NCBI GenBank assembly: GCA_964463925.1 | Contig: CAYXDV010000002.1 | Location: 19 to 64,018 of the forward strand | Reading direction: 5' to 3' | Source: an uncultured Gammaproteobacteria bacterium | GTDB taxonomy: Bacteria > Patescibacteriota > Microgenomatia > UBA12405 | Length of the DNA: 64,000 nt | In this document: positions 24,684-57,397 of the stretch, one piece after another | How the letters are laid out: each line of letters starts with the position of its first letter | Numbering within the stretch: position 1 is the stretch's first letter | Made by a program: the position numbers and the translations under genes | Notes under the pieces: model-generated | The model's database searches: none | What the model was told of the DNA's origin: nothing | The model's input: only the letters and a program-made list of their open reading frames with translations

Positions 24684-25458
24684 CTACTTAGCCGCCGTTC
24701 CACTTACTGCTCGAATTGGCTATAGTCAGCCTTTTACTCTTTTTGGTTATACTAGCAGTAATTCTTACGTTCAGCTTCAAGCACCGTCGACCTCAGCTCA
24801 AACTATATCCGATAGCACTGGCTATTTTGAGTTTAGCCAAATTATCCTTCCAACTCAAGCGAAAGAATTGTGCTTTACTAGCAAAGACTCTGCAAATCGT
24901 AGCAATCCTCCAATTTGCATTGTTACTCCAAATTTTTCAAAAAATTACCAAAAGGTAGGGCCAATATTACTTGCACCAACTCTGAGTTTGTCAAATTCCA
25001 ATCCAAAACCGGGAGAAACTCTTATTGCTTCAGGCCAAACTATCCCCAACCGTCCCCTTACAATAAATCTCTATGCCCAAAATCCCACTGCCCCCAATTT
25101 TCCCAAATCAGCTATGGCAGCCTCAAATACCCAAATTTTACAGATTCCTATTCAAGCTGATACTCAGGGAAATTTTAGCCTCAACTTACCCACCACCAAA
25201 GCCACAGCATACAAAGTAATTGCTCAGACGATTTTTGAAACCAACAATCTATCTCCGCCTTCTTTCCCACTCTATTTTTCTCTACCAACCCTTCTGATTT
25301 TCTTGTTACAAATTCTACCAATTTTCGTCTTGTTTCTACCACTTTTGTGTCTGTTTTTCTTTCTCCTTTTTATTCAACACCAAACTAAACCACATTTTTA
25401 TCCCGCACTGTATCCTAAACAATTAATTCCCTACTCCAATTTATGTCCAAAATCCTAA
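24649..25458 (+). CDS. Ig-like surface protein with C-terminal TM anchor
   Basis: Beta-rich body with a very hydrophobic C-terminus (LLIFLLQILPIFVLFLPLLCLFFFLLF). The track start overlaps the upstream gene by 35 nt, so the true start is uncertain. Confidence 0.45.
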   Translation: MARKINLPIVLSYLAAVPLTARIGYSQPFTLFGYTSSNSYVQLQAPSTSAQTISDSTGYFEFSQIILPTQAKELCFTSKDSANRSNPPICIVTPNFSKNYQKVGPILLAPTLSLSNSNPKPGETLIASGQTIPNRPLTINLYAQNPTAPNFPKSAMAASNTQILQIPIQADTQGNFSLNLPTTKATAYKVIAQTIFETNNLSPPSFPLYFSLPTLLIFLLQILPIFVLFLPLLCLFFFLLFIQHQTKPHFYPALYPKQLIPYSNLCPKS

Positions 25459-25859
25459 AGCTATTTATTCTACTAGTTCTCTTACTCTCCTTGTTTTTTA
25501 GCAGCTATTACCTGGCCAAAATCACTGTTCTTAGCAGTAGGGCTTCCAACTATGTTACTGTTCTCAACCCAGACAATTCTTATGTCTTTGCCTCTCCTGT
25601 TGCTGCCAAAGCTGACAACGATCAACGTATTCGAATTACTGTATTTTTACTAAACAACCAGGGACTGCCAGTTGTTGGAGCCACAGTCAAACTAACCACT
25701 TCCCGTCAAACTGTAAATATTAGTCAGGTCTCCCCACAAACTGACGAAACGGGTAAGGCTTATTTCGATTTAAACAGCAATCTGGCTGGGCCAGCTACTA
25801 TCCTAGCTAGTATAGAATCCCAAACCCTACCCCAAAAAATCACCGTCAGTTTCTACTAA
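25443..25859 (+). CDS. membrane-anchored bacterial Ig-like (Big-1/invasin-like) domain protein
   Basis: N-terminal TM. IRITVFLLNNQGLPVVGATVKL...TDETGKAYFDLNS...ATILASI matches the Big_1 domain pattern. Confidence 0.5.
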   Translation: MSKILKLFILLVLLLSLFFSSYYLAKITVLSSRASNYVTVLNPDNSYVFASPVAAKADNDQRIRITVFLLNNQGLPVVGATVKLTTSRQTVNISQVSPQTDETGKAYFDLNSNLAGPATILASIESQTLPQKITVSFY

Positions 25860-26486: not shown

Positions 26487-26921
26487 TTATTTAAATGTTA
26501 ATATAACTTCGCCAGGTAATGGAACGCCGTTGACGCTAGCAGTCAATGCAAACTGTCCAGAGACACTTGAAGTTGCTTCAAAACTAGCCATACCATCAGT
26601 ATCCGTCTTTGCTTCCCTGCCTTCCAAGCTTGGCAAGCCACTTACTGTCACCACTTTAGCGGCCACCCCTCTACTTTCTGCATCGCGGACAAAAACCAAG
26701 AATTTGGCAACATCTTTACCATCAGCTACAGCCGTTAATTTAGATCCCAAAACATAAGACTCAGACAAAGAAATACTCCCCGCAGGCGCTGCCTTGGTCA
26801 ATAAAACCACCCCTCTAGCAACCAAGTTGCTACCCAGCAATAACAAAAAAGCTAAGCCCAAAAACAAAACAGTCAAATTTCTTAAATCTTTATGTTCTCT
26901 CAACCACATCCATAGATTCAT
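26487..26921 (-). CDS. membrane-anchored Ig-like (Big-1-like) domain protein, paralogous architecture to 25443..25859
   Basis: N-terminal TM. VAAKVVTVSGLPSLEGREAKTDTDGMASFEATSSVSGQFALTASV follows the same Big_1-type pattern. Confidence 0.5.
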   Translation of the reverse strand: MNLWMWLREHKDLRNLTVLFLGLAFLLLLGSNLVARGVVLLTKAAPAGSISLSESYVLGSKLTAVADGKDVAKFLVFVRDAESRGVAAKVVTVSGLPSLEGREAKTDTDGMASFEATSSVSGQFALTASVNGVPLPGEVILTFK

Positions 26922-27629
26922 TATATTTATTATATAGTATATATTGAATTAATATTACTGATATCTACGCGTGCAAATATTACAAGACTAAATTAGCAAA
27001 AAAATGAGTTATCTGCTATCAAACGGTCTGCAAAAAGATTCCGAATAGTATTGAAGAAAACATACACTAAAAGATTAGAATCAAACACAGAGAAACACCC
27101 ATATAAATACTAAATTTTCCTAGTATTCTTTCTATTCGCAAACCAGTGATACTCTTTCGGGGTAGAAAAATACATTTTTTAAAAGACAATATCTAGCTAA
27201 AATACTAGTATCAAACATGATCAGCCCGCAATTTTACTTTTCCGCATTTCTCCGAAACATATTTTTTTGCCTGTGATCATTTTTACAGTATATATATCAG
27301 TTCTATATATATCGATAGTATATAGTTCCCTGTTTTTAGTACTAGTGAAAATTAACCGCAACTAATTTTCGGCAAAAATTATATATTTTGATCATTTCAT
27401 TAAATATATCAAACAAAGACAAACCTTCTCTAGTTAGTCCTTGACACAGCTATTATAGTAGTTCATCATGATAATTAATTACAAATTTATCGTTGATAAA
27501 CATGTATAAAAAAGCACTATTTGAATCTGAGAAATTATCACCGCAAAATTTAATCCCCTGGCTTATTTTGTTGTCAGCCTACTTCTTTATTTGGCGCTAA
27601 AAAAAACTTTTAGTTTTTATTAACATCTA

Positions 27630-28049
27630 ATGCTTGCTGCCTTTTCTCTCTGGTTAAAAAATAAACCGTATACCACCCATACACAGAGAAATTACCTAGT
27701 AGATATCCGTAAATTTTTAACTTGGACCCAATCTCAACCAAGCTCAAAATTTAACCAAAAACTCCTAATTAGCTATTTATCCCTTATCTCTCAGGAAAAA
27801 AGCTATTCAAGACAGTTGGCATCTATAAAGCTCTTTTGCCAGTTTGCCAAAGACCAGAACTTGACTGCTTCTGATATATTTGCCTCTAGCCTTAAAGCTA
27901 TTACTCATCTCGGTAATTCAGAAATTATCAATCAGCAAAACCTACTTGCGGAATATGCTCATTGGTTAAAACTCCAAAAAGTCTCCAAGTCCACTCTTCG
28001 AAACTATCTTAGCGACCTTAATGATTATCTAAACTGGCTCCATGCTTAA
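27630..28049 (+). CDS. stand-alone tyrosine-recombinase N-terminal SAM-like (core-binding) domain repeats, no catalytic domain
   Basis: Two repeats resembling XerD/phage-integrase N-terminal domains (AFSLWLKNK...TQRNYLVDIRKFLTW and LLAEYAHWLKLQKVSKSTLRNYLSDLNDYLNWL). The stop overlaps the ATG of the giant gene (ATGCTTAA), +1 frame. Confidence 0.45.
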   Translation: MLAAFSLWLKNKPYTTHTQRNYLVDIRKFLTWTQSQPSSKFNQKLLISYLSLISQEKSYSRQLASIKLFCQFAKDQNLTASDIFASSLKAITHLGNSEIINQQNLLAEYAHWLKLQKVSKSTLRNYLSDLNDYLNWLHA

Positions 28050-31000
28050 CCTAGGTCAAATTTCCAGTCATCAAAAGCAAGAAGCCTATTTAAACAAACT
28101 AAAATCCAGCGGCACCAGTCAATCCACCTTAGCCAGAAAACAAGCCAGCCTAAACACCTTTAATCGCTTTGCTGCCATAAAATTTCCTAAATCTACTACA
28201 TCAAAAATAGTATCTACCACCTCAAAGTCAATTAAATTAGCACCAAGCTTTAATCCACTGAAAATTTTAATACCCGTAACTCTTTTCCTTCTAATAGGAG
28301 CCCTAACCTATGGATTTTTTCGTCAAACTATTCAGCAGGCAGTTCAAAGCTTTGCTTACCCGAATACCCCAACACGTCCAACCAGGCGTTTATCTTTCCA
28401 GGGTCGCCTAACAGATACCACTGGTACCCCTATTACCAGTCCTAGTAACGTTAAATTCGGTTTGTGGAACGCTGGCACTGGAGGTACTGAACTATATAAC
28501 ACTGGAACAGGTGGAACAGTAGTACCAGATCAAAATGGTATTTTTTCAGTCTTAATAGGTGATCAAGTTGGCACTGAAATACCAGCCAACATCTTTACTG
28601 AAAACCAAAACATCTACTTAGAAATTACCATGAACCCCAGCTCATCAGCAGAGACCATGACTCCCCGCCAACAGATAGCTAGTGTTGGTTATGCCTTAAA
28701 TTCCGAAACTTTGCAAGGTTACCCCCCACTTGGAGTAGGACAGTCAAATGTTGTATTGGTTTTAGATAATACTGGTGTTTTGAATCTTGGCTATACCTCC
28801 CCAACATTCAAATCTACTGCTGGTACTTTTGGCCTTGAAGGCCAAGCTATGACTCTAAAAGCCACAGATACCAGCAATGGCAGCCTCAATCTAAACCCAG
28901 ACGGTACTGGAAATGTAAACATGATTTTCGAAGGAACTTCTGCTGTTGGGGCTACTGGGTTCCTGAGTTTGACAAATGCCAATTTAAGCGGTGGCGCTTT
29001 GATCTATTCTAATATCAACAATACTAATCGTGGCTACGATTTCATCAATTTTCAAAACTATAATCCAGCCACCACTACTCTAGCCAGTCGTTTTCGAGTT
29101 GATGCCTACGGCAATGCTTCTATTGGTGGCACCATGTCTGCTGTTAATATTGCAGTTTCGGGCAATTCAAATATTGGTGGCACTCTTAATTTAACCAACA
29201 CCCCTCAGGGTGTCGGAACGACCGTTCTCTATCTAAGCAACACTGGCGTAGTTACCCAGGGCACATTACCAGCAACTTCTAGTGGAATTGCTTCTGGCTA
29301 CAATGGGCTCAGTATTGGCGGCACCGCAATTGGACTAGGAGGCACTCTAAATCAGAACACCAATATTGGCACTAGCAACTTTTATCTTCGTTTTACCGGA
29401 CAGACTAACCAAGAAGCTTTATATATAAATAATGCAGGTGACCTAGGTGTTGGCACTACTAATGCCTATGCTAATGCCCAGTTAAGCCTAGAAGGTGGCT
29501 ACCTCGGCTTAGAAAATGGTGATTTTGGCGGCAGCAGAGGTATTCGTTTCCGCAACAGTGCTGATACAGGAACCGCATCTATTTCTGGCGGCGGAATATA
29601 TCAAGCAAGCAATGATGTTCTTTATCTTCAAGATGGAGCAACAAACATAACCATCCTTCGCAATAGTATTGGTGGTGAAAAACTTAGGATTACTAACTCA
29701 GGCATTGGTATCACAGGTGGAGGAATCATTTATCCAAGTAGCGATTCTACTAATGGTTTATCTATTGCCAATTCGTCTGGTACCAAATTCGTCGGTTTTG
29801 ATACCACTAATCAAAGGGTCGGCATTGGTACCACAATTCCAAACGACACTTTTTCCGTAAACAATCAATTCACAATTAATAGTTCTGGGGTTGCCAAAGC
29901 AGCCAATGGTTCTACCACCACTCCGTCATACAGTTATCTAAACGATACTTCTAGTGGTCTTTATCTAAACACAACCAGTGATATTCGAGTTTCCATCGGC
30001 ACCACTTCAGTAGCTCAATTTACACCACTCGGAATGACTATTGGTAAAAGCCTGGGTTATGACACTGGTGCCACCCTGCGTCTTAGTAACAGTTCATCTG
30101 GTGGCAGGAATAGTCTCGTTTTATTAAATGCAAACACTGGGGTTGGTAGTAGTAGCTCTGCCTTAACTTGGAAAAATGCATCGAATACAACTCTTTGGGA
30201 AATGGCCAATGATAATGGTGCCAACGGAGGACAGAATTTTTATCTCTACGACGGCCTCGCCGGACAATATCGTTGGCACGTAAATTCTTCAGGCAATATG
30301 GGCATTGGTACTGTAAATCAAACAGGTAAACTCTCAGTAGTTGGCTCCCAGGGAGACACTCGCTCAGTATCAATTGATAATCGTGAAATAAAATTCCGAG
30401 GAGATGGTGTGGCCCATATGTCAATCTTTGGCCCAGACACTAGTAAATCTTACTTAACAATCCAGAATACTAGCAGTAGCTCAGCCGTTGGAACAACAGG
30501 CGCTGATCTATTAACAGTACTGTCTTCTGGCTCAGTTGGTATTGGCACAACTTCTCCAAGAGGTATCCTGCAGGTTGGCCAAGATATCGGTGGTACTGGA
30601 CCAATTTTAACTTTCTTATCAGCAGGAACAACAGGTAAATTTGGTGTTGGGACCACCAACCCAGTCGATACGTTAGAAGTTGTCGGCAATGCCGTAGCCA
30701 ATACCTTTGTCGACCGCCAAAATATTAGTTATTTACTTGACCCAGCTCAAACCAGCAACACAGCCTCTTCTCTATCTCTTACATCTACAGGATCCGTTCG
30801 CTTCAACTCTACTTACAACACTGGCTGGAAATCTATCGATACTGGAAACGATACTCTAATTAAGCTTGAAGCTCAAAGCAATAGTGCCACTAATCGTGGC
30901 TTGATTCTTGGTATTGCCACTACTGGCGCCGGCGGAACCATGACTCCAGGCTTGTGGGATTCACAGTCTTTATATCTAAAAAACAATGGTTACATTGGCA

Positions 31001-34000
31001 TCGGTACCACTAATCCAAGTTATCGTTTGGAGGTTGCTGGTTCAGTCCGAATTGGTGGAACTTTATTTGATACCACAAGTCAAGCAGGTACGGCAGGCCA
31101 AGTTTTAATGAGTACTGGAACCGGTGTCAGCTGGGGTTCGGGTTCCACTCCTACCAATGGTTTGCAATACATCGGCAACAGTATTGGTCTTGGTGGAACT
31201 CTGGTCCAAAACACAACCATTGGAACTAGTAGTTTCTACTTAAATTTTTTGGGTCTTGGTAACACCCAATCACTTTATTTGGCATCCAGCGGTTATATTG
31301 GTATAGGTACCACCACTGCCAACGCCAAACTTAGCTTGGGCAACAATGTTGCTACTGGATTTTTAGATACATATGGCGAATATCAAATTTTATTATTTGA
31401 TGCCGGTGGAGCCGGCGGTTCTTATGGATTGGGTGTTAAAGGAAGCACTTTAGTAATGAATAGTGGTGCCGGAGCTTATAGTTTCGACCGTGCCGGTAAT
31501 GCCACAACTCTGTATATGGACACCTCCGGTAATGTCGGTATTGGCACCACTAGCCCTTCTGGTAGATTAGATGTTGTTAATGGGACAACTAATTATTTAG
31601 GAACTAATCAATTTGCAGATGGAATAGCTGAATTGGGCTCTAGGGGAACAGGAAACAGATATTCATATATCGATTTTCATGGAGATGATACCTATACAGA
31701 TTTTGGCTTAAGAATAATTCGTAACAATACTGGGGCCAATGCCGACTCTCAAATAAGTCACCGAGGCACAGGACAGCTTGCCATTCGCACCGAAGAAGCT
31801 GGAAGTAATATCGGACTGTGGACAGCAGCTGGAGAAAGAGTGCGTATTACTGACACTGGCAATGTTGGTATTGGCACCACGGTCCCAAGAAATGGTTTAG
31901 AATTAGCCAAATTAGACAGTAATTATATTACATCGCTTAGGATTGGAGGAATAACTGGGGGTAATACAGGGGTCGGTCTCAGTACAGAAACCTCTAGACA
32001 CCAAATTCTCTTTTCTAGCTGGAGAGATACTCAAACCGATACCGTAGGAGCCAAAATCGCTGCCATAAACTTAAATAACTGGTCGGCTGGAAATGCTGCT
32101 GTACAAAAAACTGACTTAGCTTTTTTTACTCTTGGAACAACCCCAACCAGCACAGACAATACAACTGAAAAAATGAGATTAACTAGTAACGGCTATTTAG
32201 GAGTAGGTACCACCAATCCTTATGCTGGCCTAGATGTCAAAGGTGGAGCTTTTTTTGATGGTAATCTGTTTAACTATAATACGAATGGTGTCAATGGAAT
32301 TTCTGACGAAGCTAGTTTGGTACCCAATACCGGTTTTGAGATAGTCGATCCCAATAATTCAAACTTAGCTATTGGTTGGACTGCTCTTATGGTCGGTAGC
32401 TCTGGATTACAAACCGTAACTCGAGAAACCGGCAGTACTATGGTCACCCAAGGTAATGCTGCTGTAAAAATTACTCGAGGTGGAACTTCGGGTCAAGGTT
32501 ACATTCTACTTTCCTCTTGTATTCCTATCAGCCAAAATCGCAATTACATTCTCTCTTGGATCGATATTGGCACCACCAGTGATAATAACGGTATGTACGG
32601 AGCCTATGAGGGTTATACCACTCTATCTGATTGTGCCAGTCGTAATATAGGTGCCGGAACTTCTGGCAATAGTGTTCAAACATATTATGGAGCAACTGCC
32701 GAAGGAACACTGACCAAAAACACCTTCAAACCTCATTACACCACACCGTTTAATGCTGGCACAGGATATAAATGGGCTCGTTTTGGTTTCCGCAGCAACA
32801 CTTTTGCTGTTAGTGGTGGCACTGCTTATTTTGATGCCTTCAAAGCCTGGACTGATGATAATTATTCATCCAACACCCAAGGTGGAGTCGACCTTGCAGA
32901 AAATTATCCCGTCAATCCAGATCAAAACATTGAACCTGGAGATCTTGTCGCCCTATCCCCAACTCTTTCCACAGAAGCTGGAATCAATGTTTTAGAAAAG
33001 TCAACTACCCCCAATCAATCCACTTTATTTGGAGTAGTTTCTACTAAACCAGGGTTGGTTTTGGATGATTCTATACCTTACACTCGTGCTGCCATTGCCC
33101 TAGCTGGTCGGGTTCCAATCAAAATTAGTCCCAACTCAGCACCAATTTTAGCTGGAGATTATATTACTAGTAGTTCTTACGCTGGTTTTGGACAAAAATC
33201 ACTTTCAGCCGGAAAAGTCATTGGCCAAGCATTGGAATCCTGGACTCCAGAATCAGGTAAATCAACCATCACTATCCTTATCAATAACACCTACTACACT
33301 CCACAAATATTCCTCACAAACTCCGGACACATCCAAACAAATTTTGTAACAGATTCCAAAGCTTTAGCCAGCTTGGGACTTGAAAGTAGTCAGGATGCCA
33401 TAGTTCATGCTAACTATGATCTTGTTGACCAACTTGGAAATACTTTGAATCGTACTGAACAGTTTAGTAATATTTTGAGTGCAAAAATTATGACTGGATT
33501 ATTGGAAGCCAACAATATTGTAACAAACATTACCACAAGTAAAACTACTATTACAAAAGACCTCTATACTGAGACCATCTCTCCTCTGGGCAACAACACT
33601 CAAATTAAAATAAATTCAGACTTAAATGTTGCCGGCAATTTACTTGCCACCGATATTGCTACTACAAAATTGATTGCTTCTGAAGCCAGTATTAGTGGCA
33701 CCCTTTATGCTGACAGGATTGTTTCCAAAGAAGGCAACTTCAATGATTTGTTAACAAGCAGAGTTGTCGCCCTTAGAACTGAATTGCAAACATTCATCAG
33801 TAGCAACACAGCTCCTGCAATGCCACCCTCTACCATCGCTAGTCAAATACCTCTTTGGTCCTTTGATGTAGGCACAAGTGCCACTGAAATCAAAGGTGAT
33901 TTAAAACTATCTGACAATTTAATAGTTGCTGCCAAACTACAAGTACAGGGACAAGCCCAATTAGCATCTGCCCTAGTTGCTCATGATCTCACAATCGACC

Positions 34001-34542
34001 AGATCCAAATATCACAAAACTATATCAAATCATCTACAAACAGCCTTGCCATCCAACCACAAAAGACAGGCATAGTGACCATTCTTGGCGATCTGTTGAC
34101 TCTTGCAGACAATGGATCTGTCACTATTAATGGTGATTTAACAGTATCAGGCACCATTGCTAGTAGTGGTGTTTTAACTAGCAACTTAATAGCAACAGAT
34201 GCCAGCATTAGCGGAACGCTAACCTCTGGCAAATTGAATATTGCTACTGATAGTGCCACTCTGATTATCGCTCAGGATAATAACCTCAACCAAACAGCCG
34301 GCTCTTCTGCTCAAATTATCAGTAATGCCAGTGCAGGCCTGGCAACTCTACCGGCAGGCAGTACTGAACTCATTGTTCAATCAAATCAGCTGCATTCCAA
34401 TTCTATGGTCTATTTAACTCCAAATTCTTCCACCCAAAATCAAGTTGTCTATGTCAAGTCTAAAGATGACAAAAGCTTTACGATCGGTATCGATACCCCG
34501 CTACCCACTTCCATTCCTATCAACTGGTGGATAATTAATTAG
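28042..34542 (+). CDS. giant membrane-anchored surface protein (2166 aa) with tail-fibre-like GIGTTxP repeats
   Basis: Uninterrupted 6.5-kb ORF. The N-terminal ~40 aa carry a third SAM-like repeat (AYLNKLKSSGTSQSTLARKQASLNTFNRF), followed by a TM helix (ILIPVTLFLLIGALTYGFF). At least eight copies of (V/I)GIGTT(S/N/T/V/I)P...L(D/E/Q/S)V, as in phage tail-fibre proteins. Gly/Thr/Asn-rich, beta-rich. Confidence 0.9.
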   Translation: MLNLGQISSHQKQEAYLNKLKSSGTSQSTLARKQASLNTFNRFAAIKFPKSTTSKIVSTTSKSIKLAPSFNPLKILIPVTLFLLIGALTYGFFRQTIQQAVQSFAYPNTPTRPTRRLSFQGRLTDTTGTPITSPSNVKFGLWNAGTGGTELYNTGTGGTVVPDQNGIFSVLIGDQVGTEIPANIFTENQNIYLEITMNPSSSAETMTPRQQIASVGYALNSETLQGYPPLGVGQSNVVLVLDNTGVLNLGYTSPTFKSTAGTFGLEGQAMTLKATDTSNGSLNLNPDGTGNVNMIFEGTSAVGATGFLSLTNANLSGGALIYSNINNTNRGYDFINFQNYNPATTTLASRFRVDAYGNASIGGTMSAVNIAVSGNSNIGGTLNLTNTPQGVGTTVLYLSNTGVVTQGTLPATSSGIASGYNGLSIGGTAIGLGGTLNQNTNIGTSNFYLRFTGQTNQEALYINNAGDLGVGTTNAYANAQLSLEGGYLGLENGDFGGSRGIRFRNSADTGTASISGGGIYQASNDVLYLQDGATNITILRNSIGGEKLRITNSGIGITGGGIIYPSSDSTNGLSIANSSGTKFVGFDTTNQRVGIGTTIPNDTFSVNNQFTINSSGVAKAANGSTTTPSYSYLNDTSSGLYLNTTSDIRVSIGTTSVAQFTPLGMTIGKSLGYDTGATLRLSNSSSGGRNSLVLLNANTGVGSSSSALTWKNASNTTLWEMANDNGANGGQNFYLYDGLAGQYRWHVNSSGNMGIGTVNQTGKLSVVGSQGDTRSVSIDNREIKFRGDGVAHMSIFGPDTSKSYLTIQNTSSSSAVGTTGADLLTVLSSGSVGIGTTSPRGILQVGQDIGGTGPILTFLSAGTTGKFGVGTTNPVDTLEVVGNAVANTFVDRQNISYLLDPAQTSNTASSLSLTSTGSVRFNSTYNTGWKSIDTGNDTLIKLEAQSNSATNRGLILGIATTGAGGTMTPGLWDSQSLYLKNNGYIGIGTTNPSYRLEVAGSVRIGGTLFDTTSQAGTAGQVLMSTGTGVSWGSGSTPTNGLQYIGNSIGLGGTLVQNTTIGTSSFYLNFLGLGNTQSLYLASSGYIGIGTTTANAKLSLGNNVATGFLDTYGEYQILLFDAGGAGGSYGLGVKGSTLVMNSGAGAYSFDRAGNATTLYMDTSGNVGIGTTSPSGRLDVVNGTTNYLGTNQFADGIAELGSRGTGNRYSYIDFHGDDTYTDFGLRIIRNNTGANADSQISHRGTGQLAIRTEEAGSNIGLWTAAGERVRITDTGNVGIGTTVPRNGLELAKLDSNYITSLRIGGITGGNTGVGLSTETSRHQILFSSWRDTQTDTVGAKIAAINLNNWSAGNAAVQKTDLAFFTLGTTPTSTDNTTEKMRLTSNGYLGVGTTNPYAGLDVKGGAFFDGNLFNYNTNGVNGISDEASLVPNTGFEIVDPNNSNLAIGWTALMVGSSGLQTVTRETGSTMVTQGNAAVKITRGGTSGQGYILLSSCIPISQNRNYILSWIDIGTTSDNNGMYGAYEGYTTLSDCASRNIGAGTSGNSVQTYYGATAEGTLTKNTFKPHYTTPFNAGTGYKWARFGFRSNTFAVSGGTAYFDAFKAWTDDNYSSNTQGGVDLAENYPVNPDQNIEPGDLVALSPTLSTEAGINVLEKSTTPNQSTLFGVVSTKPGLVLDDSIPYTRAAIALAGRVPIKISPNSAPILAGDYITSSSYAGFGQKSLSAGKVIGQALESWTPESGKSTITILINNTYYTPQIFLTNSGHIQTNFVTDSKALASLGLESSQDAIVHANYDLVDQLGNTLNRTEQFSNILSAKIMTGLLEANNIVTNITTSKTTITKDLYTETISPLGNNTQIKINSDLNVAGNLLATDIATTKLIASEASISGTLYADRIVSKEGNFNDLLTSRVVALRTELQTFISSNTAPAMPPSTIASQIPLWSFDVGTSATEIKGDLKLSDNLIVAAKLQVQGQAQLASALVAHDLTIDQIQISQNYIKSSTNSLAIQPQKTGIVTILGDLLTLADNGSVTINGDLTVSGTIASSGVLTSNLIATDASISGTLTSGKLNIATDSATLIIAQDNNLNQTAGSSAQIISNASAGLATLPAGSTELIVQSNQLHSNSMVYLTPNSSTQNQVVYVKSKDDKSFTIGIDTPLPTSIPINWWIIN

Positions 34543-36352
34543 CTGTATACTTTTCTTTCCATTCTAAAAAATCATCTATTTTAAGCAGATTTATTACGTA
34601 CAATTGTTTCCAGTATGTAAAATCATTCAGATCTACAGCCATGTCTTTATTTAAATCAGCATCTGAATAATAAAATTTAGATACTCCCGGACTAGTATCA
34701 ACAATAGGCTCAACAAAAACCCCATCAAGTCTATATTCAGTTGACTTTTCCAAATAAAACTCTATTCGTAATTTCACTGTCAATGGGTTGACTTTAGTAT
34801 CTTGAGTTATCTCTTTATATTCTGGAGAGCTAAAAAAGGTGGTCTCAGAAGAATCTAGTACATTGCCTTTATCTCCAAACTGCCACATTTTTATCGTCAG
34901 CTGACCATTACTCAAACTACTTACTATGCCCCCAAATTTCAAAATAGTATATTTTCCAGGTATGATTTCTACATCTTGATAAATACTTTGTCTAGGCCTA
35001 CATTCACCGCCACAGTTTGTTGCCAAAAAACATCTTGCATCATAAGATTCCTCTGGCTTTCTTAAAACTAAATAGTTAGTTGTGCTGCCAACCGGTTGCA
35101 TTCGATCCCAGCCAGAAAAATCACATCTATCAAAATCACCATTAGTTAATAGGTTTTTTTTAAAAACAAGCTCGTAAATATATATACCAGTGTAGCCGCC
35201 CATTTCCTCCCAATTTGGATCTCTAGAAACATGCATATAATATTTTCCAGTCTTGTCATCCTGAAATATAGATGCATATTGTAAATCACAAGCCGGAGTT
35301 TCCCCTTTCTTATCCATTCTTTTTGAAGAGTATAAAATTGGATTTCCAGCAGGCAGCTGTTCCAAATTCCTCAACCATATATCAGAACTTCTAACAACTC
35401 CATAATCCCAATTCTGGTCCTTCATACACAACAAACTAGTATCCATCGATTCAGTAATCAAATAATATTCATCACCTTCTTTCCAGCTTCTAGCAAAACC
35501 AAAACCTTTGTTCTCGCCCTGCCAAAGCTCCCTCCATATTCTGGAATCTCTCTTGGATAATACAGAATCATCACCTGTTTCATAATCCACAAAATTTTTT
35601 GTTCTAGCTGTCCCACGAAAACCAGCAAGCCCATCAAAACCATGAAAACTAATGTAATAATAGCCATCTATTTTGTCATAAATATCAAAGGTACCTTCGT
35701 CAGCAACCTTACCAATTCCTCCAGATTCTTGAACACACACATCAGCATTTGAATTACATATTTTCCTCCACAATTCACCACCAACAATTACCGGAGCAGT
35801 TTTAAGTTCAAAATCACCATAAGGGTCAATATTATTTCTAGTTGCCAAACACCCGTTCCAATGCCCGTCAGATCCTAAGCATTGAAACAAATATAGCCAT
35901 TGGTTTTTGTCCCTGTCAAAGTACATACTTCCATCAGTACCGCTGCACTCCCAAGGACTTCCAGCCACAGCCTTTGGGACAATCACTTGGGGCCAGGACC
36001 AAGTTTTACCCTGGTCATATGATCTCCTTATTGTAGAACCAGATGCACCTTGACCATTGGTAATGTCCAAACATTTCTTCGAGGTTTTATTTTCCCAATC
36101 ATATTCTCTAGCCACCATATACCACACCCCATTCTTAACAAAAATCTGAGTTCCTGCTTGATATCCATATATATTTATAAATTTATCAACATTTTCTTGC
36201 CATTGACTAGAATCTTTGATTAGTAATGAATTATTTAGTTTCCATTCGGCTTTCCCTTCCCAATAATCTTTCAAAATCGGTTCACTGGCTATTGCGCAGT
36301 TTGCCACAGACATACCCCACAACATAAAAAAACATAATATATATTTTTTCAT
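34535..36352 (-). CDS. secreted BNR/Asp-box repeat (sialidase-superfamily beta-propeller) protein with C-terminal dockerin-like module
   Basis: Signal peptide. Asp-box SYDQGKTWS (SxDxGxTW). C-terminal DLNKDMAVDLNDFTYWKQLY...DDFLEWKEKY. Confidence 0.7.
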   Translation of the reverse strand: MKKYILCFFMLWGMSVANCAIASEPILKDYWEGKAEWKLNNSLLIKDSSQWQENVDKFINIYGYQAGTQIFVKNGVWYMVAREYDWENKTSKKCLDITNGQGASGSTIRRSYDQGKTWSWPQVIVPKAVAGSPWECSGTDGSMYFDRDKNQWLYLFQCLGSDGHWNGCLATRNNIDPYGDFELKTAPVIVGGELWRKICNSNADVCVQESGGIGKVADEGTFDIYDKIDGYYYISFHGFDGLAGFRGTARTKNFVDYETGDDSVLSKRDSRIWRELWQGENKGFGFARSWKEGDEYYLITESMDTSLLCMKDQNWDYGVVRSSDIWLRNLEQLPAGNPILYSSKRMDKKGETPACDLQYASIFQDDKTGKYYMHVSRDPNWEEMGGYTGIYIYELVFKKNLLTNGDFDRCDFSGWDRMQPVGSTTNYLVLRKPEESYDARCFLATNCGGECRPRQSIYQDVEIIPGKYTILKFGGIVSSLSNGQLTIKMWQFGDKGNVLDSSETTFFSSPEYKEITQDTKVNPLTVKLRIEFYLEKSTEYRLDGVFVEPIVDTSPGVSKFYYSDADLNKDMAVDLNDFTYWKQLYVINLLKIDDFLEWKEKYTAN

Positions 36353-40838: not shown

Positions 40839-43800
40839 TTATGGAGGAGCAATTGTCGAGCTAATCGTTTCAGGTGCCAAATAAGCTGTCTTCCAAACTA
40901 AAAAGTCGCCAAATGTCATTTGTCCTAAGTTATATCTATCTTTCCAAATCATAAAATCGCTAATATCGACTTTAGCATCATTATTGTAATCACCCAAAAG
41001 TGTACTACTACAACTGACACCATCTGTAGCACAGCTATTTGCACCGGAACCAGTGACCGTTCTACATGAATTGTTTACACAAGTCCTGTGGCAACACCTC
41101 CAATCAGTACCCAAGCCCCCATCGTTTTTACAGCCAGGTCCAGCACAAGCGCAGGCCACCGGAGTACCAGGGCAAGAATAAGTTGAATCACCAGCTCTAC
41201 TCAAATGTAGCTTTTGTACACAGCTTTCCATATTCTCAATTGGCCAACCACCTGCATAAGTATTAAATTGTAGGTCATTTACTACTTTGCCAGTTGCAGC
41301 ATCTGTCCCGCCTATGTCTCCGGCTTTTACTATCCAACTAAAAGTTTTTCTAGCTGTCGAAATTGTACTTACAGTCGCATTGTTTTGATAAGAAGGTTGT
41401 CCAGCAGTGGCTCCAATATGAACATTATCTCCAACCAATATCGCTGGACGTGCATTTCCGTTACTATCAGTATTTCCTATGTTATACATAGCCAAGGTGT
41501 TCCAATTACCAGTAGGATTATCAATAGTTGCTGTAACAGTTACGGTGTTCCCAACACTGGACATGTCTAAACTGCCAGAAGAAATACCAGAGCTAACACA
41601 ACGAACAGCTTCTGCCGTACACATTACCTGCGGACCAAATCTGTAAATCGAATGTCTAGGCCATTTTTCAAAAGGTTCAGCGACATAATAAGGCCAAACC
41701 CCAATATCATAAGATACCCCAGGAGTAAGATTTAGAGTAGTAGATCCCACTCCAGTTTTTTGATCACTAATCACAATCCATCTATCTTTGGGGTCATAGT
41801 TAGGATCAGTAGTAGTTGGTGTGTAATTTACATTTGTACTTCTATCATTAACCATAACCACATAGGCCAAAGGTGAAGTTCCAGCGTTGGCCGGTCTATT
41901 CCATGTCAAGATTTTACTGGAACAAGAATATCCATTGCCAACAGAAACAGTTGGGGCATTTAGATTTGGACCATACATATAACTAACGTCTTGCTCTACT
42001 CCACCAACATTCTTCACTACCCTCTTTTGTCCATTACAAGTATGTCCGGAATACATAGACCAATTACGATCTATATAACCATCCTTACAAATTCTAACTG
42101 CATTGTCAGCATCACTCCAGTCACACACAGCACCAACAGAACAGGGTTGAGATGTGGTAACTCTACTTAAATGTAATCTCTGTACACAGCTTTCCATATT
42201 CTCAATTGGCCAACCACCTGCATAAGTATTAAATTGTAGGTCATTTACTACTTTGCCAGTTGCAGCATCGATTCCAGAAATATCACCAGCTCTTACTGCC
42301 CAGGTAAAGGTCTTGTTAGGTCCAGAAGTACTTACCGCCGCATTGTCTTGATAAGATGGTTGTCCAGCAGTGGCTCCAATATGAACATTACCTCCTGTTA
42401 TTATTGCTGGTTTGGCATTGCCACCAGCATCAGTGTTCCCGATGTTATACATAGCTAACGAATTCCAATTACCAGTAGCATTGGCCATAGTAGCTATAAC
42501 TGTCACCGTATTTCCCAGGTTCGACATATCCAAACTGCCAGAAGAAATACTAGAGCTGACACAACGAACAGGAATTCTTGTTGGTGATGGACTGGTTGGT
42601 GAAGTACACATGATTTGTGGACCAATTATGCCAACTCCATGTCTAGACCATTGAGCATAATCTTCAGCTTTGTAATAAGGTTGTACTGCAATATCAATAG
42701 AATCATCTGCCACAAGACTTAGTGATTTACTAAGATTAATAGCTGATTGCTGATCATTAACCACAATCCATTGATCATTTGGATCTTTACCGGTTCCGGT
42801 ACCAGGCAAATAGGAATCATTCAACTTGTGATCATTAACCATAATCACATAGTTAATTAAATTAGAACCAGCATTAGTTGGTCTATTCCAGGTTAAAGTT
42901 GTATTACTACAACTGTATGTAATTGATGTAGGAGCTAGAAGAGCAGTAGAAGGTATGTTTGTTGGTGATGGATTGGTTCTACTCAAATGTAACTTTTGTA
43001 CACAGCTTTCCATATTCTCAATTGGCCAACCACCAGCATAAGTATGAAACTGTAAATCATTTACTACTTTGCCAGTTGCAGCATCAATTCCAGAAATATC
43101 ACCGGCTTTTACTGCCCAGGTAAAGGTCTTTCTAGTTGCCGAGACTGTATTTACAATCGCATTATCTTGATAAGAAGCAGTTGTACCACTATTGCCAATT
43201 TTTACATTACCTACAGCTGGCAACAAGGCATCTTTAGGATTGTTTGCACTATAGAGATTCTCTAGATTATACATAGCCAGTGAATTCCAATTACCAGTAG
43301 GATTATCAATAGTTGCCGTAACGGTTACGGTGTTGCCAACATTGGACATATCCAAACTGCCAGAAGAAATACTAGAGCTGACACAACGAACAGGAATCTT
43401 TGTCGGTGGTGGATTAGTTGGTGCAGCACACATGACTTGTGGACCAATTCGGTAAATCGAATGTCTAGACCATTTTCCATATGGCTCATTAAGATAATAA
43501 GGCCAAACCCCAATATCATAAGATACCCCAGGTGTAAGGTTTAAGGCCGCATATCCCAACGCAACCTGATGGTCAGTCACCACAATCCACTTGTCTTTAG
43601 GATCATAATTGGAAGCTGTAGAAGTGGGCACATAATCAGCATTTATACTCCTGTCATTAACCATTACCACATAAGCCATTGGAGCACCTAAAGAAGCATT
43701 GCTAGGCCTCACCCAAGTTAACCCTCCGCTAGAACAGCTATAACCACTATTATCTCCATATGCAGTTGGGGCATTTAAATTTGGACCATACATATAACTA

Positions 43801-44060
43801 ACATCAACACCAGAAGCATCAATCACTCTCTTTTGTCCATTACAAGTATGTCCGGAATACATAGACCAATTACGATCTATATAACCATCCTTACAAATTC
43901 TAACTGCATTGTCAGCATCACTCCAGTCACACACAGCACCAACAGAACAATCCTGGGCAGGTATTAGACTCGTGACTGCCTCCACTTTACCAACCACCCC
44001 AAATATCATAATAAACCCAAAAATTAGTACACCAAAAAGATCCATACTTAAACATAACAA
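40839..44060 (-). CDS. secreted 1073-aa repeat protein (three ~270-aa tandem modules + Cys-rich knot + C-terminal dockerin-like module)
   Basis: Signal/TM. The module VRCVSSSISSGSLDMSNVGNTVTVTATIDNPTGNW...IENMESCVQKLHLSR occurs three times. The shared CSVGAVCDWSDADNAVRICKDGYIDRNWSMY module occurs twice. C-terminus CKNDGGLGTDWRCCHRTCVNNSC...DYNNDAKVDISDFMIWKDRY...FLVWKTAY. Confidence 0.85.
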   Translation of the reverse strand: MLCLSMDLFGVLIFGFIMIFGVVGKVEAVTSLIPAQDCSVGAVCDWSDADNAVRICKDGYIDRNWSMYSGHTCNGQKRVIDASGVDVSYMYGPNLNAPTAYGDNSGYSCSSGGLTWVRPSNASLGAPMAYVVMVNDRSINADYVPTSTASNYDPKDKWIVVTDHQVALGYAALNLTPGVSYDIGVWPYYLNEPYGKWSRHSIYRIGPQVMCAAPTNPPPTKIPVRCVSSSISSGSLDMSNVGNTVTVTATIDNPTGNWNSLAMYNLENLYSANNPKDALLPAVGNVKIGNSGTTASYQDNAIVNTVSATRKTFTWAVKAGDISGIDAATGKVVNDLQFHTYAGGWPIENMESCVQKLHLSRTNPSPTNIPSTALLAPTSITYSCSNTTLTWNRPTNAGSNLINYVIMVNDHKLNDSYLPGTGTGKDPNDQWIVVNDQQSAINLSKSLSLVADDSIDIAVQPYYKAEDYAQWSRHGVGIIGPQIMCTSPTSPSPTRIPVRCVSSSISSGSLDMSNLGNTVTVIATMANATGNWNSLAMYNIGNTDAGGNAKPAIITGGNVHIGATAGQPSYQDNAAVSTSGPNKTFTWAVRAGDISGIDAATGKVVNDLQFNTYAGGWPIENMESCVQRLHLSRVTTSQPCSVGAVCDWSDADNAVRICKDGYIDRNWSMYSGHTCNGQKRVVKNVGGVEQDVSYMYGPNLNAPTVSVGNGYSCSSKILTWNRPANAGTSPLAYVVMVNDRSTNVNYTPTTTDPNYDPKDRWIVISDQKTGVGSTTLNLTPGVSYDIGVWPYYVAEPFEKWPRHSIYRFGPQVMCTAEAVRCVSSGISSGSLDMSSVGNTVTVTATIDNPTGNWNTLAMYNIGNTDSNGNARPAILVGDNVHIGATAGQPSYQNNATVSTISTARKTFSWIVKAGDIGGTDAATGKVVNDLQFNTYAGGWPIENMESCVQKLHLSRAGDSTYSCPGTPVACACAGPGCKNDGGLGTDWRCCHRTCVNNSCRTVTGSGANSCATDGVSCSSTLLGDYNNDAKVDISDFMIWKDRYNLGQMTFGDFLVWKTAYLAPETISSTIAPP

Positions 44061-44081: not shown

Positions 44082-46481
44082 TTATTCCTCAATAATCCAG
44101 TTTTTAATCTTTGCAGCTAATGCGTTTTCTCCAAAATCAGCTAGTCCAGCTGCACCCCACATCTGAAAACAAGAAGACTGTGGGTCACAAGGAAAATTTA
44201 GAATAGTAAACCAAAAAACTTTCTCAGCACCTGATTTCAATTGATCATCTATCCACCAATCAAAATTATTAACAACGTTTCCAACTGAATTTCCTCCAGC
44301 TGGGATATTGGCAGATCTCTTAAAATATTGATCTATGTTTGTCTCAGTTACCCAAACAGGTATTTCCCCCCACCCCAAACTCTGTAAATATCTATGTGTC
44401 CTTGCCACCTCTTCTCCAGGCGGAATTATCGAATATGTATGTATATTCATCACATCAAAAGGTATTCCAACATTCCTCTTCTTTATTTCAGAAAGCATAG
44501 AGTTACCAATCAAGGCCGGTTCCCCAGGTTCTGCTATCTGCCAAGCACCAAAAGCATTTACTACTACTTTTGCTTCAGGATCTATTTTTTTTATTTCTCT
44601 ATAAGTCGCAATCAGCAAATCTGCATAACTTTGTTCTTTTGTCTTTCCTGGTTCAGGCACAAAAAAAGCGCTATCCACGTCTGCTTCATTCCAAATCTCC
44701 CAATTTTTTACTTTATTTTTATATCTAGTAACTACAGCATCCACATATCCAAGCCAGTCAGTTAAATTTTGAGCTGGATATTTTTCCCTTTCTGCAGGAA
44801 TAGAAACTGAACTTGGAGCTGAGCTAGCCCAAGCTGGAGATGTACCCAATATCACTGATAAGTTATCTTCAGTTTGATATAGATTCATCACATAATCAGA
44901 CGCAGCCCAATTCCATTGTCCCTTGTTTGTTTCTAACGCACGCCATGGAAGATCTTCTCTGGCCAATTTCAACCCCATACCTTTAAAAACCCCATATTGT
45001 TTCTCTACATTTTGTAATGCATCTTGGGGTGTTTTACCTCCTGCTCCTGTAGCCCAAACATAATAATTAAACAAATAATTACCCATCCCAAACTGACTTT
45101 TCCTTAATCCTCCTTTGGCCACATAAACATCCTTCCACTTTAGGAAATCACTTATTGCTAATTGATTTAGTACATATTTTTGCTTCCAATAAACAAAGTC
45201 ATTCAAGTCAATAAAGTTATCATGATTCACATCAGCAGGAGAATACACAGTCCCACACTTACTACCTTCTCCGTCACATTTATTATCACCACTGCCAGCA
45301 ACCGTACTGCAGGCATTATTCACGCATTCCCGATGACAACACCTAAAATCAGTGTTTGACCCTGCCTCGTTCTTGCAGGCACCACCTATACAAGAACAAA
45401 CACCAAAGGATCCTGTACATGCAAAGCTGGTATCTATCAAATGCATACCTTGCAGTTGCCAGTATCCCCAATTATCGCTTGCCGATAGTTCATAAGGAGC
45501 CCCAAAGCCAGCATAAATGTCGCTTATCCCGTAAATCTTTCCTTCTCTGTCACTCAATAGCCCAACATTGTGGGCAAAATCTGGAAAGTTATTTTCAGCC
45601 TCAATCATTCTTATTTCACTCCAGTTAACTCCATCTTGAGATGTTCTATACCCCAAAGCACTATTAGATGTATGCGAATTTTGTATTTGCATCATCACAA
45701 ATTGTTTATTCACCTCATCATATTTTATATCGGGTGAATGACCACGTACGTTGCTCAAATTCGTTTCTTTGGAAATAAAGTTTATTCCATCATCTGACGT
45801 AGCCATAAAAAGACCAGGGATCGATCGATATGCAGTATCATCCATATACCACATATAAGCTTTATTATCCCTCCAAACAACCGATTGTTGTCCGGCTCCA
45901 TACGGCGCATCCAATGTTGTTATATTTTTTGCTTTCACTATTTTCTTTGGAAATTGTGGGTTGTTTTGCCAAGTATTGTCTTCCGCTAAGGTTAAGTATG
46001 GGCCTTCTATATCTTGAGATCTGGCTACCGAAATATAGCTCGAAAACAAACTTGTGGCCAAATCAATTTCCAAGGCATTCGAATAATACAAATAGTAATA
46101 GCCATCTTTATAAGTCAAACTTGGATCACAAGCTGCCAGATTTTCATATTTACCAACTGAATTTTTTGTTTGTCGTGAAAATAAAACCACTTTTGGCTGG
46201 CTCCAAGTTTTTAGATCAGTACTTTTTACCAATCTAACAACATCCCATCCATCAGCCTCATCTATATTAATAGGTCTGCTGCAAAAAAAAGCATAGTAGG
46301 ATCCATTATCTTTTATCAAAGATGGAGCATAGGCGTAATTGTAACCACCCTTTTGGGGTAATGCTATTGGATTAGAAAAGTCAATTCTGTAGTCCTCGGC
46401 TTTTACCCAAGCTGGTTTTACACCAAAGATAAAGGCTATCAACCCTGCTATTGCCAATAATAAAGTTTTTTTAAATATCAT
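44082..46481 (-). CDS. secreted two-catalytic-domain protein: N-terminal GH43-like beta-propeller, internal Cys-rich knot + dockerin-like module, C-terminal GH5/GH39-like (clan GH-A) domain
   Basis: Signal peptide. ACDPSLTYKDGYYYLYYS, a GH43-type DPS...GxYYLYY motif. CKNEAGSNTDFRCCHRECVNNAC...DVNHDNFIDLNDFVYWKQKY...FLKWKDVY. NWEIWNEAD, a clan-A acid/base EIWNE motif, and VWVTETN, a nucleophile-like motif. Confidence 0.75.
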   Translation of the reverse strand: MIFKKTLLLAIAGLIAFIFGVKPAWVKAEDYRIDFSNPIALPQKGGYNYAYAPSLIKDNGSYYAFFCSRPINIDEADGWDVVRLVKSTDLKTWSQPKVVLFSRQTKNSVGKYENLAACDPSLTYKDGYYYLYYSNALEIDLATSLFSSYISVARSQDIEGPYLTLAEDNTWQNNPQFPKKIVKAKNITTLDAPYGAGQQSVVWRDNKAYMWYMDDTAYRSIPGLFMATSDDGINFISKETNLSNVRGHSPDIKYDEVNKQFVMMQIQNSHTSNSALGYRTSQDGVNWSEIRMIEAENNFPDFAHNVGLLSDREGKIYGISDIYAGFGAPYELSASDNWGYWQLQGMHLIDTSFACTGSFGVCSCIGGACKNEAGSNTDFRCCHRECVNNACSTVAGSGDNKCDGEGSKCGTVYSPADVNHDNFIDLNDFVYWKQKYVLNQLAISDFLKWKDVYVAKGGLRKSQFGMGNYLFNYYVWATGAGGKTPQDALQNVEKQYGVFKGMGLKLAREDLPWRALETNKGQWNWAASDYVMNLYQTEDNLSVILGTSPAWASSAPSSVSIPAEREKYPAQNLTDWLGYVDAVVTRYKNKVKNWEIWNEADVDSAFFVPEPGKTKEQSYADLLIATYREIKKIDPEAKVVVNAFGAWQIAEPGEPALIGNSMLSEIKKRNVGIPFDVMNIHTYSIIPPGEEVARTHRYLQSLGWGEIPVWVTETNIDQYFKRSANIPAGGNSVGNVVNNFDWWIDDQLKSGAEKVFWFTILNFPCDPQSSCFQMWGAAGLADFGENALAAKIKNWIIEE

Positions 46482-56370: not shown

Positions 56371-56510
56371 CATGTCCAACACTCGAAATCTAGACATTCA
56401 AAACAAAATAAATTTTTTCGAGAACGTCCCCGCAGCGTAGCGAGGAAGTCCGGCGAGAAAAAATTACGTTTTGTTTTGAAATAAGTTTAGGTTTCCAGTG
56501 TCAGACACAG
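56371..56510 (-). repeat. 23S rRNA intervening sequence at the helix-25 position (hairpin with conserved 17-19-bp base stem)
   Basis: rRNA-sense TGTGTCTGACACTGGAAAC...about 100 nt AT-rich with a GC-rich core...GTTTCGAGTGTTGGACATG. It sits between the conserved GAAACC...ACAAGC and CCTATTGAAGAATGAGTC flanks that correspond to E. coli helix 25. Confidence 0.55.
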
Positions 56511-57324: not shown

Positions 57325-57397
57325 TGGACCTAAGGGGACTCGAACCCCTGACCCCCTCATTGCAAATGAGGTGCTCTACCAACTGAGCCATAGGCCC
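57325..57397 (-). tRNA. tRNA-Ala (anticodon TGC), immediately upstream of 23S
   Basis: Reverse strand GGGCCTATGGCTCAGTTGGTAGAGCACCTCATTTGCAATGAGGGGGTCAGGGGTTCGAGTCCCCTTAGGTCCA. The G3-U70 pair typical of tRNA-Ala is present. Confidence 0.85.

Follow-up and report, generated by a model that had tools for sequence, protein, structure and literature searches.

A 64,000-nucleotide stretch of DNA (contig CAYXDV010000002.1; hereafter the window) carries a short open reading frame, ORF1 (27630..28049, 139 residues), and, overlapping its end, a giant one (28042..34542, 2166 residues). Both lie on the forward (+) strand, as do the parts of the cassette described below, and both are present as a first-pass annotation of this DNA had claimed. 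We find it highly probable that the giant protein is a membrane-anchored, mosaic adhesin of the MAT (mosaic adhesive trimer) or tail-fibre type with a G2-type intramolecular chaperone, that its division into two genes is conserved, and that the SAM-like module at its cytoplasmic end is no recombinase. The explanation that we prefer as a whole, a membrane-anchored MAT-like fibre with a G2 chaperone on which ORF1 docks by way of a split domain, is probable but less firm. The window is of Patescibacteria/Microgenomates type, with best matches in metagenome-assembled genomes (MAGs) of Shapirobacteria.

What is the relation between ORF1 and the giant protein? ORF1 is basic (pI 9.7) and soluble, and it matches the Pfam family Phage_int_SAM_1 (PF02899) above the curated cutoff (E 5.6e-11). 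NCBIfam XerD/XerC models match ORF1 over their first ~90 positions only, with 34 bits against cutoffs above 300. A homology search with ORF1 gave 3 matches, a number restricted by the word index. Using a family-specific hidden Markov model (HMM) of the SAM-like domain, we found in ORF1 one complete recombinase-type (core-binding-like) four-helix domain (residues 2–86, 27633..27887; HMM positions 2–94 of 96, 61.5 bits), followed by the first helical hairpin of a second domain (residues 105–138, 27942..28043; HMM positions 1–34, 35.6 bits). The ORF1 stop comes immediately after this hairpin, and the second hairpin stands at the very start of the giant protein (residues 4–50, 28051..28191; HMM positions 41–87), from where a basic Ser/Thr/Lys linker runs to residue 74. 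The earlier assignment of ORF1 and the giant N-terminus to SAM-like repeats was thus correct, given the Pfam match and a profile match to XerD, but its count of two repeats in ORF1 and a third in the giant was not: there is one complete domain plus one that is split between the two proteins. Pfam alone gives the same division, since residues 7–44 of the giant match only the second half of the SAM-like profile and the tail of ORF1 only the first. When ORF1 and the giant were virtually fused, Pfam aligned residues 107–183 to profile positions 2–79 of 83 in one stretch over the junction, and the score rose from 43 to 64.7 bits (PF02899, E 9.4e-18). The joined domain aligns end to end with the intact domains of fused relatives, and of the invariant residues, L, Y and D belong to the half in ORF1 and R to that in the giant.

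Against structures in the PDB, the family-domain profile matches XerD (1a0p, residues 6–94, E 1.4e-4) and the integrase N-domains 2key and 3nrw. Its best match is chain 14 of 9i5v, a 401-residue protein deposited as "ribosome-associated translation inhibitor RaiA" that begins with a XerC/D-type SAM-like domain of ~100 residues; it is either a fusion or oddly annotated. The recombinase catalytic domain (PF00589, R-H-R-Y) was found neither in ORF1 or the giant nor in the precomputed Pfam lists of 120 homologues; thus, the SAM-like module is not a recombinase.

We mapped the family HMM onto three frames of 83 loci and found the same division in ~38 unique loci, each a species-level genome and the window among them. 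In these loci the upstream gene encodes a complete domain plus HMM positions 1 to ~35, the fibre gene starts at HMM position ~40 and runs to ~92, and the break point is in every case the loop between the hairpins. Sister loci in which everything is in frame encode two complete domains (26 loci) or one (12 loci). Relative to the upstream gene, the fibre gene of split loci is in the +1 frame in 29, in the −1 frame in 5 and in the same frame behind a stop in 8 (these 42 loci include a few duplicate contigs), and the junctions range from overlaps of 4–23 nt to gaps of 1 to ~800 nt. The downstream genes start with ATG, TTG or CTG, and a Shine-Dalgarno (SD)-like AGAGGG or AAGGGGG is found where there is a gap. 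Even at ~70% ORF1 identity the geometry can differ, as between L021/L046 (in-frame stop and a 15-nt gap) and L072 (+1). One MAG (CAZSLG01) holds, on separate contigs, a fused-type member with one complete SAM-like domain (L028) and a split-type member (L034); therefore, paralogues of both architectures can coexist in one genome bin.

In the window, the giant ORF is in the +1 frame relative to ORF1 and the two share an 8-nt overlap, ATGCTTAA. Because a TAA stands in the giant's frame at 28030–28032, ATG 28042 is its earliest possible start, and this ATG aligns with the Met of the closest homologues. The DNA across the junction is identical in an independent Logan assembly (L087), and the closest relative, whose ORF1 is 75% identical, has the same 8-nt overlap in two separate sequencing runs. 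ORF1-like proteins have a median identity of 37% and are as little as 17% identical, and for unsaturated orthologue pairs the ratio of nonsynonymous to synonymous changes (dN/dS) is 0.04–0.22 in ORF1 and 0.05–0.33 in the giant's hairpin, indicating purifying selection on both halves. The conserved break, the variable frames and gaps, the low dN/dS and the independent assemblies together indicate that the split is an ancient, selected gene fission within a four-helix domain rather than the product of an error, of gene decay or of programmed frameshifting. The first-pass annotation had proposed a programmed or decayed frameshift, which does not agree with a split kept in ~38 genomes in three relative frames with spacers up to ~800 nt, nor with a downstream gene that has its own start codons, SD-like motifs in several loci and a dN/dS of ~0.04–0.3.

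The giant protein contains a single hydrophobic 19-mer, a transmembrane helix of signal-anchor type at residues 75–93 (28264..28320; Kyte-Doolittle 2.2), whose position is conserved in all family members. The 74 residues before it contain 12 K+R and 1 D+E (pI 10.9), which suggests that the N-terminus is cytoplasmic and the fibre anchored in type-II orientation; in relatives, up to ~450 cytoplasmic residues precede the helix. A cleavable N-terminal signal peptide of the kind found in MAT fibres is absent from the giant, where the helix stands behind that 74-residue basic segment, itself half a domain. Nearly all family members have an (L)AYP(T/S) or LAYST motif 10–15 residues past the helix (residues ~100–112 of the giant).

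Behind the helix follows a β-rich base domain (LSFQGRLTD...YALNSETLQG; residues ~100–245, 28339..28776), probably a relative of the domain with which Bdellovibrio MAT fibres begin: the NCBIfam model NF053851 (Bdello_MAT_N) matches the giant's segment with E 2.2e-8 and 34 bits, and matches 18 of 18 family members (best 2e-10). The next segment is a mosaic shaft rich in Gly, Thr, Ser and Asn (residues 246–1404, 28777..32253); over the whole giant, T makes up 12.6%, G 12.3%, S 10.6% and N 8.6%. The eight GIGTT copies noticed at first reading are borne out, with 8 strict [VIL]G[IV]GTT motifs, or 10–12 with looser variants, between residues 390 and 1390, whereas 2000 shuffles that kept the composition averaged 0.011 and never exceeded 1. 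By phmmer the shaft weakly matches Bd2133 (8ond) through ...R(I/L)..(S/T)GN(V/L)G(I/L)GT..P...L.V, and by tblastn it is 24–29% identical to tail-fibre or "chaperone of endosialidase" genes of cyanophages and pelagiphages. PDB sequence searches with the whole giant, residues 1400–1800 and residues 1780–2166 returned the weak Bd2133 match and otherwise noise. The initial view of a membrane-anchored, phage-tail-fibre-like protein is thus supported by the GIGTT motif of Bd2133 and the MAT-N-like base domain, and further by the weak phage matches and the intramolecular chaperone domain described next.

This chaperone, a Peptidase_G2-type autoproteolytic domain, occupies residues 1617–1802 (32890..33447), with a predicted self-cleavage site at V1616|D1617. 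A ~180-residue domain starting GGV-DLAENY is common to 35 family proteins in this region, and in its structure model it has the fold of the C-terminal autochaperone of phage phi29 gp12. D1617 and E1620 (D-x-x-E) are invariant in 21–23 family copies and in the alignment face the first and fourth residues (DFAE) of 3gqh, the cleaved fragment of gp12; the acidic pair of gp12 is reportedly catalytic. The Pfam model PF11962 is matched by 12 of 21 aligned relatives (best 5.2e-7), and the family profile matches gp12 at E 1.2e-5. By analogy with gp12, the giant may cleave itself at V1616|D1617 after assembly. The Peptidase_S74 chaperone that had been expected at the C-terminus is absent: neither the whole giant nor its segments match PF13884 (SDxxxK) at E <= 5. 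The homologues P0003, P0005, P0016 and P0051 do contain S74 (E 1e-10 to 2e-17), and the G2 domain stands at the position that S74 has in close homologues. The giant is thus NS74-like, with a G2-type chaperone where a MAT fibre has S74 or another capping domain.

Just ahead of the chaperone lies a tip domain (domain D, residues 1405–1616, 32254..32889), which in a predicted model is a CBM4/22-like β-sandwich and at the sequence level is rare: in a dissection against relatives this segment was common to 0 of 119 family proteins, a word-indexed search gave no match, and an exhaustive search gave 6 weak relatives whose Pfam content was uninformative. A kinship with the CBM-like C-terminus of a neighbouring 605-residue ORF was considered and rejected, the two being unrelated. 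Past the chaperone, a repetitive, β-helix-like region F (residues 1803–2089, 33448..34308) is common to the 14 closest family members by phmmer and has a weak bactofilin-type repeat match under the cutoff (E 1e-4). The protein ends in domain G (residues 2090–2166, 34309..34539), a hallmark present in 98 of 119 family proteins and forming the exact C-terminus in 54 of 90 full-length matches; it gives a weak full-length match to the Pfam tailspike C-terminal domain K1-lyase_C (E 6e-4, 20.6 bits, cutoff 27).

How widespread is this architecture? A homology search returned 138 giant proteins of 1300–3700 residues from Shapiro-, Collier-, Woese-, Pace-, Roizman- and Beckwithbacteria MAGs, most with SAM-like PF02899 and many with PF13884, LamG, Kelch, collagen, BNR, YadA-head or lectin modules. 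Some members also have H-type lectin or LVIVD modules, and six (P0070, P0082, P0087, P0101, P0104 and P0109) have precomputed matches to PF14890, an intein/Hint-type splicing domain and perhaps a third self-processing module beside S74 and G2. The base domain is present in 114 of 119 family proteins, with variable middles, and in a scan of one genome per GTDB species it was encoded at 432 loci, many of which end at contig ends. Databases name the homologues "hypothetical", "site-specific integrase/XerD" or "tail fiber domain-containing protein". A cytoplasmic module on a surface fibre, which the first-pass annotation had offered as its alternative, is the reading that survives, and the module is a hallmark of this large family.

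The fibres are mosaic even between close relatives. Over most of its length the giant is 85–96% identical to its closest relative (90% in the tip), and their cytoplasmic 100 residues are only ~60% identical; thus, the cytoplasmic part evolves faster than the extracellular base. Compared with the fibre of locus L085, which is otherwise ~90% identical, a ~230-residue shaft cassette (residues ~1160–1390, 31519–32211) is unrelated (18–26% identity), a 35-residue GIGTT unit (residues ~830–890) is present in only one of the two, and the recombination breakpoints fall at GIGTT-type motifs. Literature searches on SAM-like or integrase domains of giant Patescibacteria proteins, on S74 in Patescibacteria and on Microgenomates adhesins turned up no description of the family. 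The fibre family, its SAM-like cytoplasmic module and the split thus appear to be undescribed; phage-derived MAT-type adhesive fibres are already known, and the novelty lies in the cytoplasmic module and the unusual split-domain, three-gene organisation.

The third gene is an unannotated micro-ORF of 32 residues, MYKKALFESEKLSPQNLIPWLILLSAYFFIWR (27502..27600), with a short basic N-terminus and a C-terminal hydrophobic helix that ends at the stop. In 33 loci a homologue precedes the ORF1-like gene by 0–65 nt (family HMM, mostly 54–80 bits; consensus MYKKYNFEPKSLSP..L.E+L.PFLIIAATF[IV]WLWK*), and one is also found upstream of a re-fused variant (L084). The exact sequence was not found in a collection of 15 billion proteins, so the micro-ORF has never been called as a gene. 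Its start lacks an SD and has a conserved (G/T)ATAAAC ATG context. About 40 nt further upstream is a promoter-like or operator-like motif, TTGACA-N8-ATAGTAG (27441..27461), the sole match in the window (0.01 expected) and part of the 27441–27469 segment that a generic sigma-70 scan also selects. In the form TTGACA-N(7–12)-ATAGTAG it occurs once per locus at the equivalent position in 27 of 87 fetched loci, and the TTGACA and TAGTAG/ATA blocks are invariant in a 16-locus alignment. A second conserved block, ACTATCAAAATAtATCAT, lies ~40 nt further upstream and a TGTGAAA block at about −145; the conserved upstream DNA spans 27352..27504. Window and L085 are ~97% identical over 27441–27550 and ~80% in ORF1. 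This upstream DNA may be a promoter plus operator.

How would the parts of this cassette, ordered promoter-like motif, 32-residue membrane micro-protein, ORF1 and giant fibre, work together? We propose that the single N-terminal signal-anchor helix inserts the giant in the cytoplasmic membrane, with the first 74 residues inside and the other ~2070 exported to form a phage-tail-fibre-like, presumably trimeric, mosaic fibre. The trimer is indirectly supported by the chaperone, which is of a trimer-dependent type. From the membrane outwards, the fibre would consist of the base domain, the GIGTT-punctuated Gly/Thr-rich shaft and the CBM-like tip, with the G2 chaperone behind the tip; as in gp12, the chaperone would nucleate folding, cut itself off at V1616|D1617 and leave the carbohydrate-binding-like tip distal. 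The modelled tip may bind a glycan or a host. Most likely, the fibre holds the cell to a glycan that a host cell or substrate presents; host or surface attachment is the most reasonable role. Variable fibre modules are exchanged by recombination. At the cytoplasmic end, the last domain of the family-wide SAM-like four-helix module has been split by the ancient fission in the window's lineage. ORF1 would then dock non-covalently on the fibre tail, completing the four-helix bundle, so that the two-gene form mimics the single chain of the sister clades. For this last step, docking by completion of the split domain, we consider the case evenly balanced.

Several observations weigh against this picture. 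On the cytoplasmic side, a single-sequence AlphaFold2 model of ORF1 joined to residues 1–110 of the giant has helices where expected but a pLDDT of 55, too poor for a fold search, and mirror-tree and partial-Mantel tests gave no signal specific to the two hairpins, since the partial correlation is 0.36 for hairpin with hairpin and for domain 1 with hairpin alike. With the extracellular base domain accounted for, the cytoplasmic parts as such still vary together (partial r 0.36, p 5e-4). On the outer side, (i) all Bdello_MAT_N matches are under the 60-bit curated cutoff and cover only profile positions 14–75 of 162; (ii) the tip model is of moderate confidence (pLDDT 45–79); (iii) the giant's own G2 copy has no match to PF11962 at E <= 0.1; and (iv) ~550 residues stand behind V1616|D1617, compared with a gp12 chaperone of 163 residues, and they end in a family-conserved domain, so that they could be retained and functional rather than discarded. 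The (L)AYP(T/S) motif could be a processing or wall-attachment site, possibly parting the fibre from its anchor, and an episymbiotic lifestyle of the source organism is assumed.

Does ORF1 bind the fibre at all? In the foremost alternative, which is unlikely but a serious contender, ORF1 is a free small DNA-binding or adaptor protein, and the hairpins of the fibre pair with one another in the trimer, for example in a six-helix bundle, or with the micro-protein. A three-chain fibre would indeed offer three identical hairpins, the absence of hairpin-specific co-evolution agrees with such an arrangement, and the conserved upstream motif could be a site for free ORF1. A natural re-fusion (P0017, locus L084), in which an ORF1-like part is joined to the membrane helix, has lost hairpin 2 and retains a degenerate hairpin 1, and the loss of hairpin 2 speaks for this alternative; a split domain whose only use was docking would leave the same pattern behind, although it is a single case. 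Against this alternative, the break is always at the inter-hairpin loop, both halves keep residues that are invariant in intact domains, the genes are adjacent and mostly overlapping over deep divergence, and the same elements form one chain in sister clades.

The SAM-like core-binding fold is known for DNA binding, and ORF1 and the giant N-terminus are both basic. These basic parts and the conserved upstream DNA blocks permit, but do not support, a regulatory or DNA-tethering role. One such possibility is a contact sensor, in which the half-domain of the fibre holds ORF1 at the membrane until it is freed, either when the tip binds or comes under tension or when the anchor is proteolysed; free ORF1 would then bind DNA, for instance the TTGACA...ATAGTAG or ACTATCAAAATAGATCA blocks, and switch expression upon host attachment. 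In a variant, the SAM-like arrays would hold DNA, either chromosomal or incoming, where the attachment fibre has its base. We consider both versions improbable; if true, the sensor would be a new kind of transmembrane signalling, made from a recombinase DNA-binding domain plus a phage-type fibre.

Could the two ORFs instead be expressed as one protein of 2300 residues, through a programmed +1 frameshift or a stop-codon bypass? The junction divides one SAM-like domain exactly, and the +1 relation is the commonest (29 of 42 loci). In addition, L066 lacks a canonical start codon for the downstream half: around positions 1100–1130 no ATG, GTG, TTG or CTG aligns with the expected fibre start (the locus reads ...AAVNLFDQ), so that it is the sole split locus where recoding or an unusual start may apply. 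Yet the window allows a shift within 14 nt only (28033–28046), where there is no slippery sequence, and the junctions of L001, L003 and the window have no motif in common. Relatives in which the giant is shifted to −1 (5 loci), follows an in-frame stop (8 loci) or lies 46–800 nt downstream also speak against a frameshift, as do the differing geometry of the close relatives L021/L046 and L072 and the SD-like motifs before the downstream start in gapped loci. We therefore regard recoding as very improbable.

It is scarcely credible, either, that the locus is a prophage remnant with an integrase fragment beside a phage tail-fibre gene. The names "site-specific integrase" and "tail fiber domain-containing protein" and the PHROG and phage tblastn matches suggest a phage, but the recombinase catalytic domain is missing from ORF1, the giant and the 120 listed homologues, the fibre has its own membrane anchor, and GC content (0.41–0.44, compared with 0.35–0.43 elsewhere) shows no strong contrast. 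The neighbours are cellular genes, with superoxide dismutase and Big_1 proteins upstream and a TPR membrane protein, a LysM-M23 peptidase and Rho downstream, and the gene order around the cassette is kept in other species. Finally, metagenome assemblies are prone to errors in giant repetitive genes, and many loci stop at contig ends. That a mistake in sequencing or assembly, or a pseudogenising frameshift of recent date, broke a fused gene is nevertheless a negligible concern given the identical DNA in the independent Logan assembly, the same overlap in two runs of the closest relative, the split in ~38 species-level genomes with ORF1 identity down to 17%, and a dN/dS well under 1 on both sides.

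The surroundings of the cassette yielded a number of further observations. Two small (~140 residues) Big_1/invasin-D3 Ig-like proteins, at 25443..25859 (+) and 26487..26921 (−), flank the superoxide dismutase gene, and in L001, L003, L084 and L085 these three genes are in synteny with the fibre cassette; L003 and L084 have a second giant, LamG-type protein just upstream. The 605-residue ORF mentioned above (34535..36352, −) has no Pfam match and an N-terminal signal-like segment; its 3′ end overlaps that of the giant by 8 nt, and because the two genes converge in this way there is no room for a terminator. Further along are a 1073-residue ORF without a Pfam match (40839..44060, −) and a 799-residue GH10+GH43 protein (44082..46481). 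The 23S rRNA (54015..57199, −) is 3185 nt long compared with a bacterial model of 2925 positions, thus ~260 nt longer, and must have one or more insertions. An ORF of 347 residues (57569..58612, −) lies between tRNA-Ala and tRNA-Ile in the rRNA spacer region (57324..58724). GC skew is −0.1 to −0.36 over the whole 64 kb and +0.04 within the giant gene at 30001–32000, where the near-zero value probably reflects the Gly-rich (GGN) coding strand.

Which known systems does the cassette resemble? The closest are the Bdellovibrio MAT fibres, which have a conserved β-rich domain of ~130 residues straight after the export signal (Caulton et al. 2024, PMC10769870), and which comprise S74 and non-S74 subfamilies with swappable adhesive tips, displayed on the cell surface for prey recognition (PMC10769870). 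With MAT fibres (examples are Bd2133, Bd2439 and Bd3182) the giant shares the shaft motif ...GN(V/L)G(I/L)GT..P...L.V and probably, to judge by a sub-threshold match, the β-rich domain next to the export signal, and its family likewise has S74 and non-S74 members with variable, swappable modules and tips. Both also come from bacteria that live on other cells, if the lifestyle assumed for the window's organism is right. In contrast to MAT fibres with their cleavable signal peptide, the giant comes from a monoderm Patescibacterium and has a transmembrane helix as its anchor, with a SAM-like module on the cytoplasmic side. It is also 2–3 times longer, and its chaperone is of the G2 type and followed by ~360 more conserved residues. 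Among phage proteins, the counterparts are tail spikes and fibres that end in an intramolecular chaperone, namely the phi29 pre-neck appendage gp12 (Peptidase_G2; 3gqh, 3suc) and the endosialidase/T5 pb1-type Peptidase_S74 proteins, but those are virion proteins with ~130–160 residues behind the cleavage site, whereas the giant is a cellular gene product with a membrane anchor, ~550 such residues and a cleavage that is predicted only.

The cytoplasmic module is homologous to the N-domain of tyrosine recombinases (XerD 1a0p, 2key, 3nrw; PF02899, PF13495, PF13102) over the whole ~85-residue four-helix domain. In contrast to the recombinases, the fibre family lacks the catalytic domain and has one to several SAM-like copies before the membrane helix, and in the window's lineage two polypeptides each carry part of one copy. 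Membrane-tethered regulators with carbohydrate-binding sensors outside the cell, such as the anti-sigma factors RsgI of Clostridium thermocellum and the ToxR/CadC-type one-component systems, combine a cytoplasmic module that binds nucleic acid or a regulator, one membrane helix and an extracellular part, and offer a functional analogy only. The giant would have a similar topology, with an N-terminal cytoplasmic module, a helix and an extracellular part ending CBM-like, but there is no sequence relationship, it has a 2000-residue fibre and neither a sigma factor nor a helix-turn-helix domain, and any signalling is hypothetical.

To our knowledge, almost nothing is known of how Microgenomates-type Patescibacteria recognise or hold other cells, and existing work is mostly on type IV pili of Saccharibacteria. 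The locus defines a large family (432 loci) of mosaic adhesins, anchored in the membrane and similar to phage fibres, that are probably kin to the fibres with which Bdellovibrio recognises prey, and the swaps of tips and shaft cassettes between close relatives are the pattern expected of host-range determinants. Names such as "site-specific integrase/XerD" mislead, inflating the counts of mobile-element genes in these genomes, and the conserved micro-ORF and promoter motif are a part of the system that standard annotation does not see. Recombinase-type domains in the cytoplasm would be a new use of the fold. Their conserved two-gene fission is a natural split-domain pair, which predicts that ORF1 binds residues 1–60 of the fibre. 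Through this pair, the system may connect surface attachment to DNA or gene regulation.

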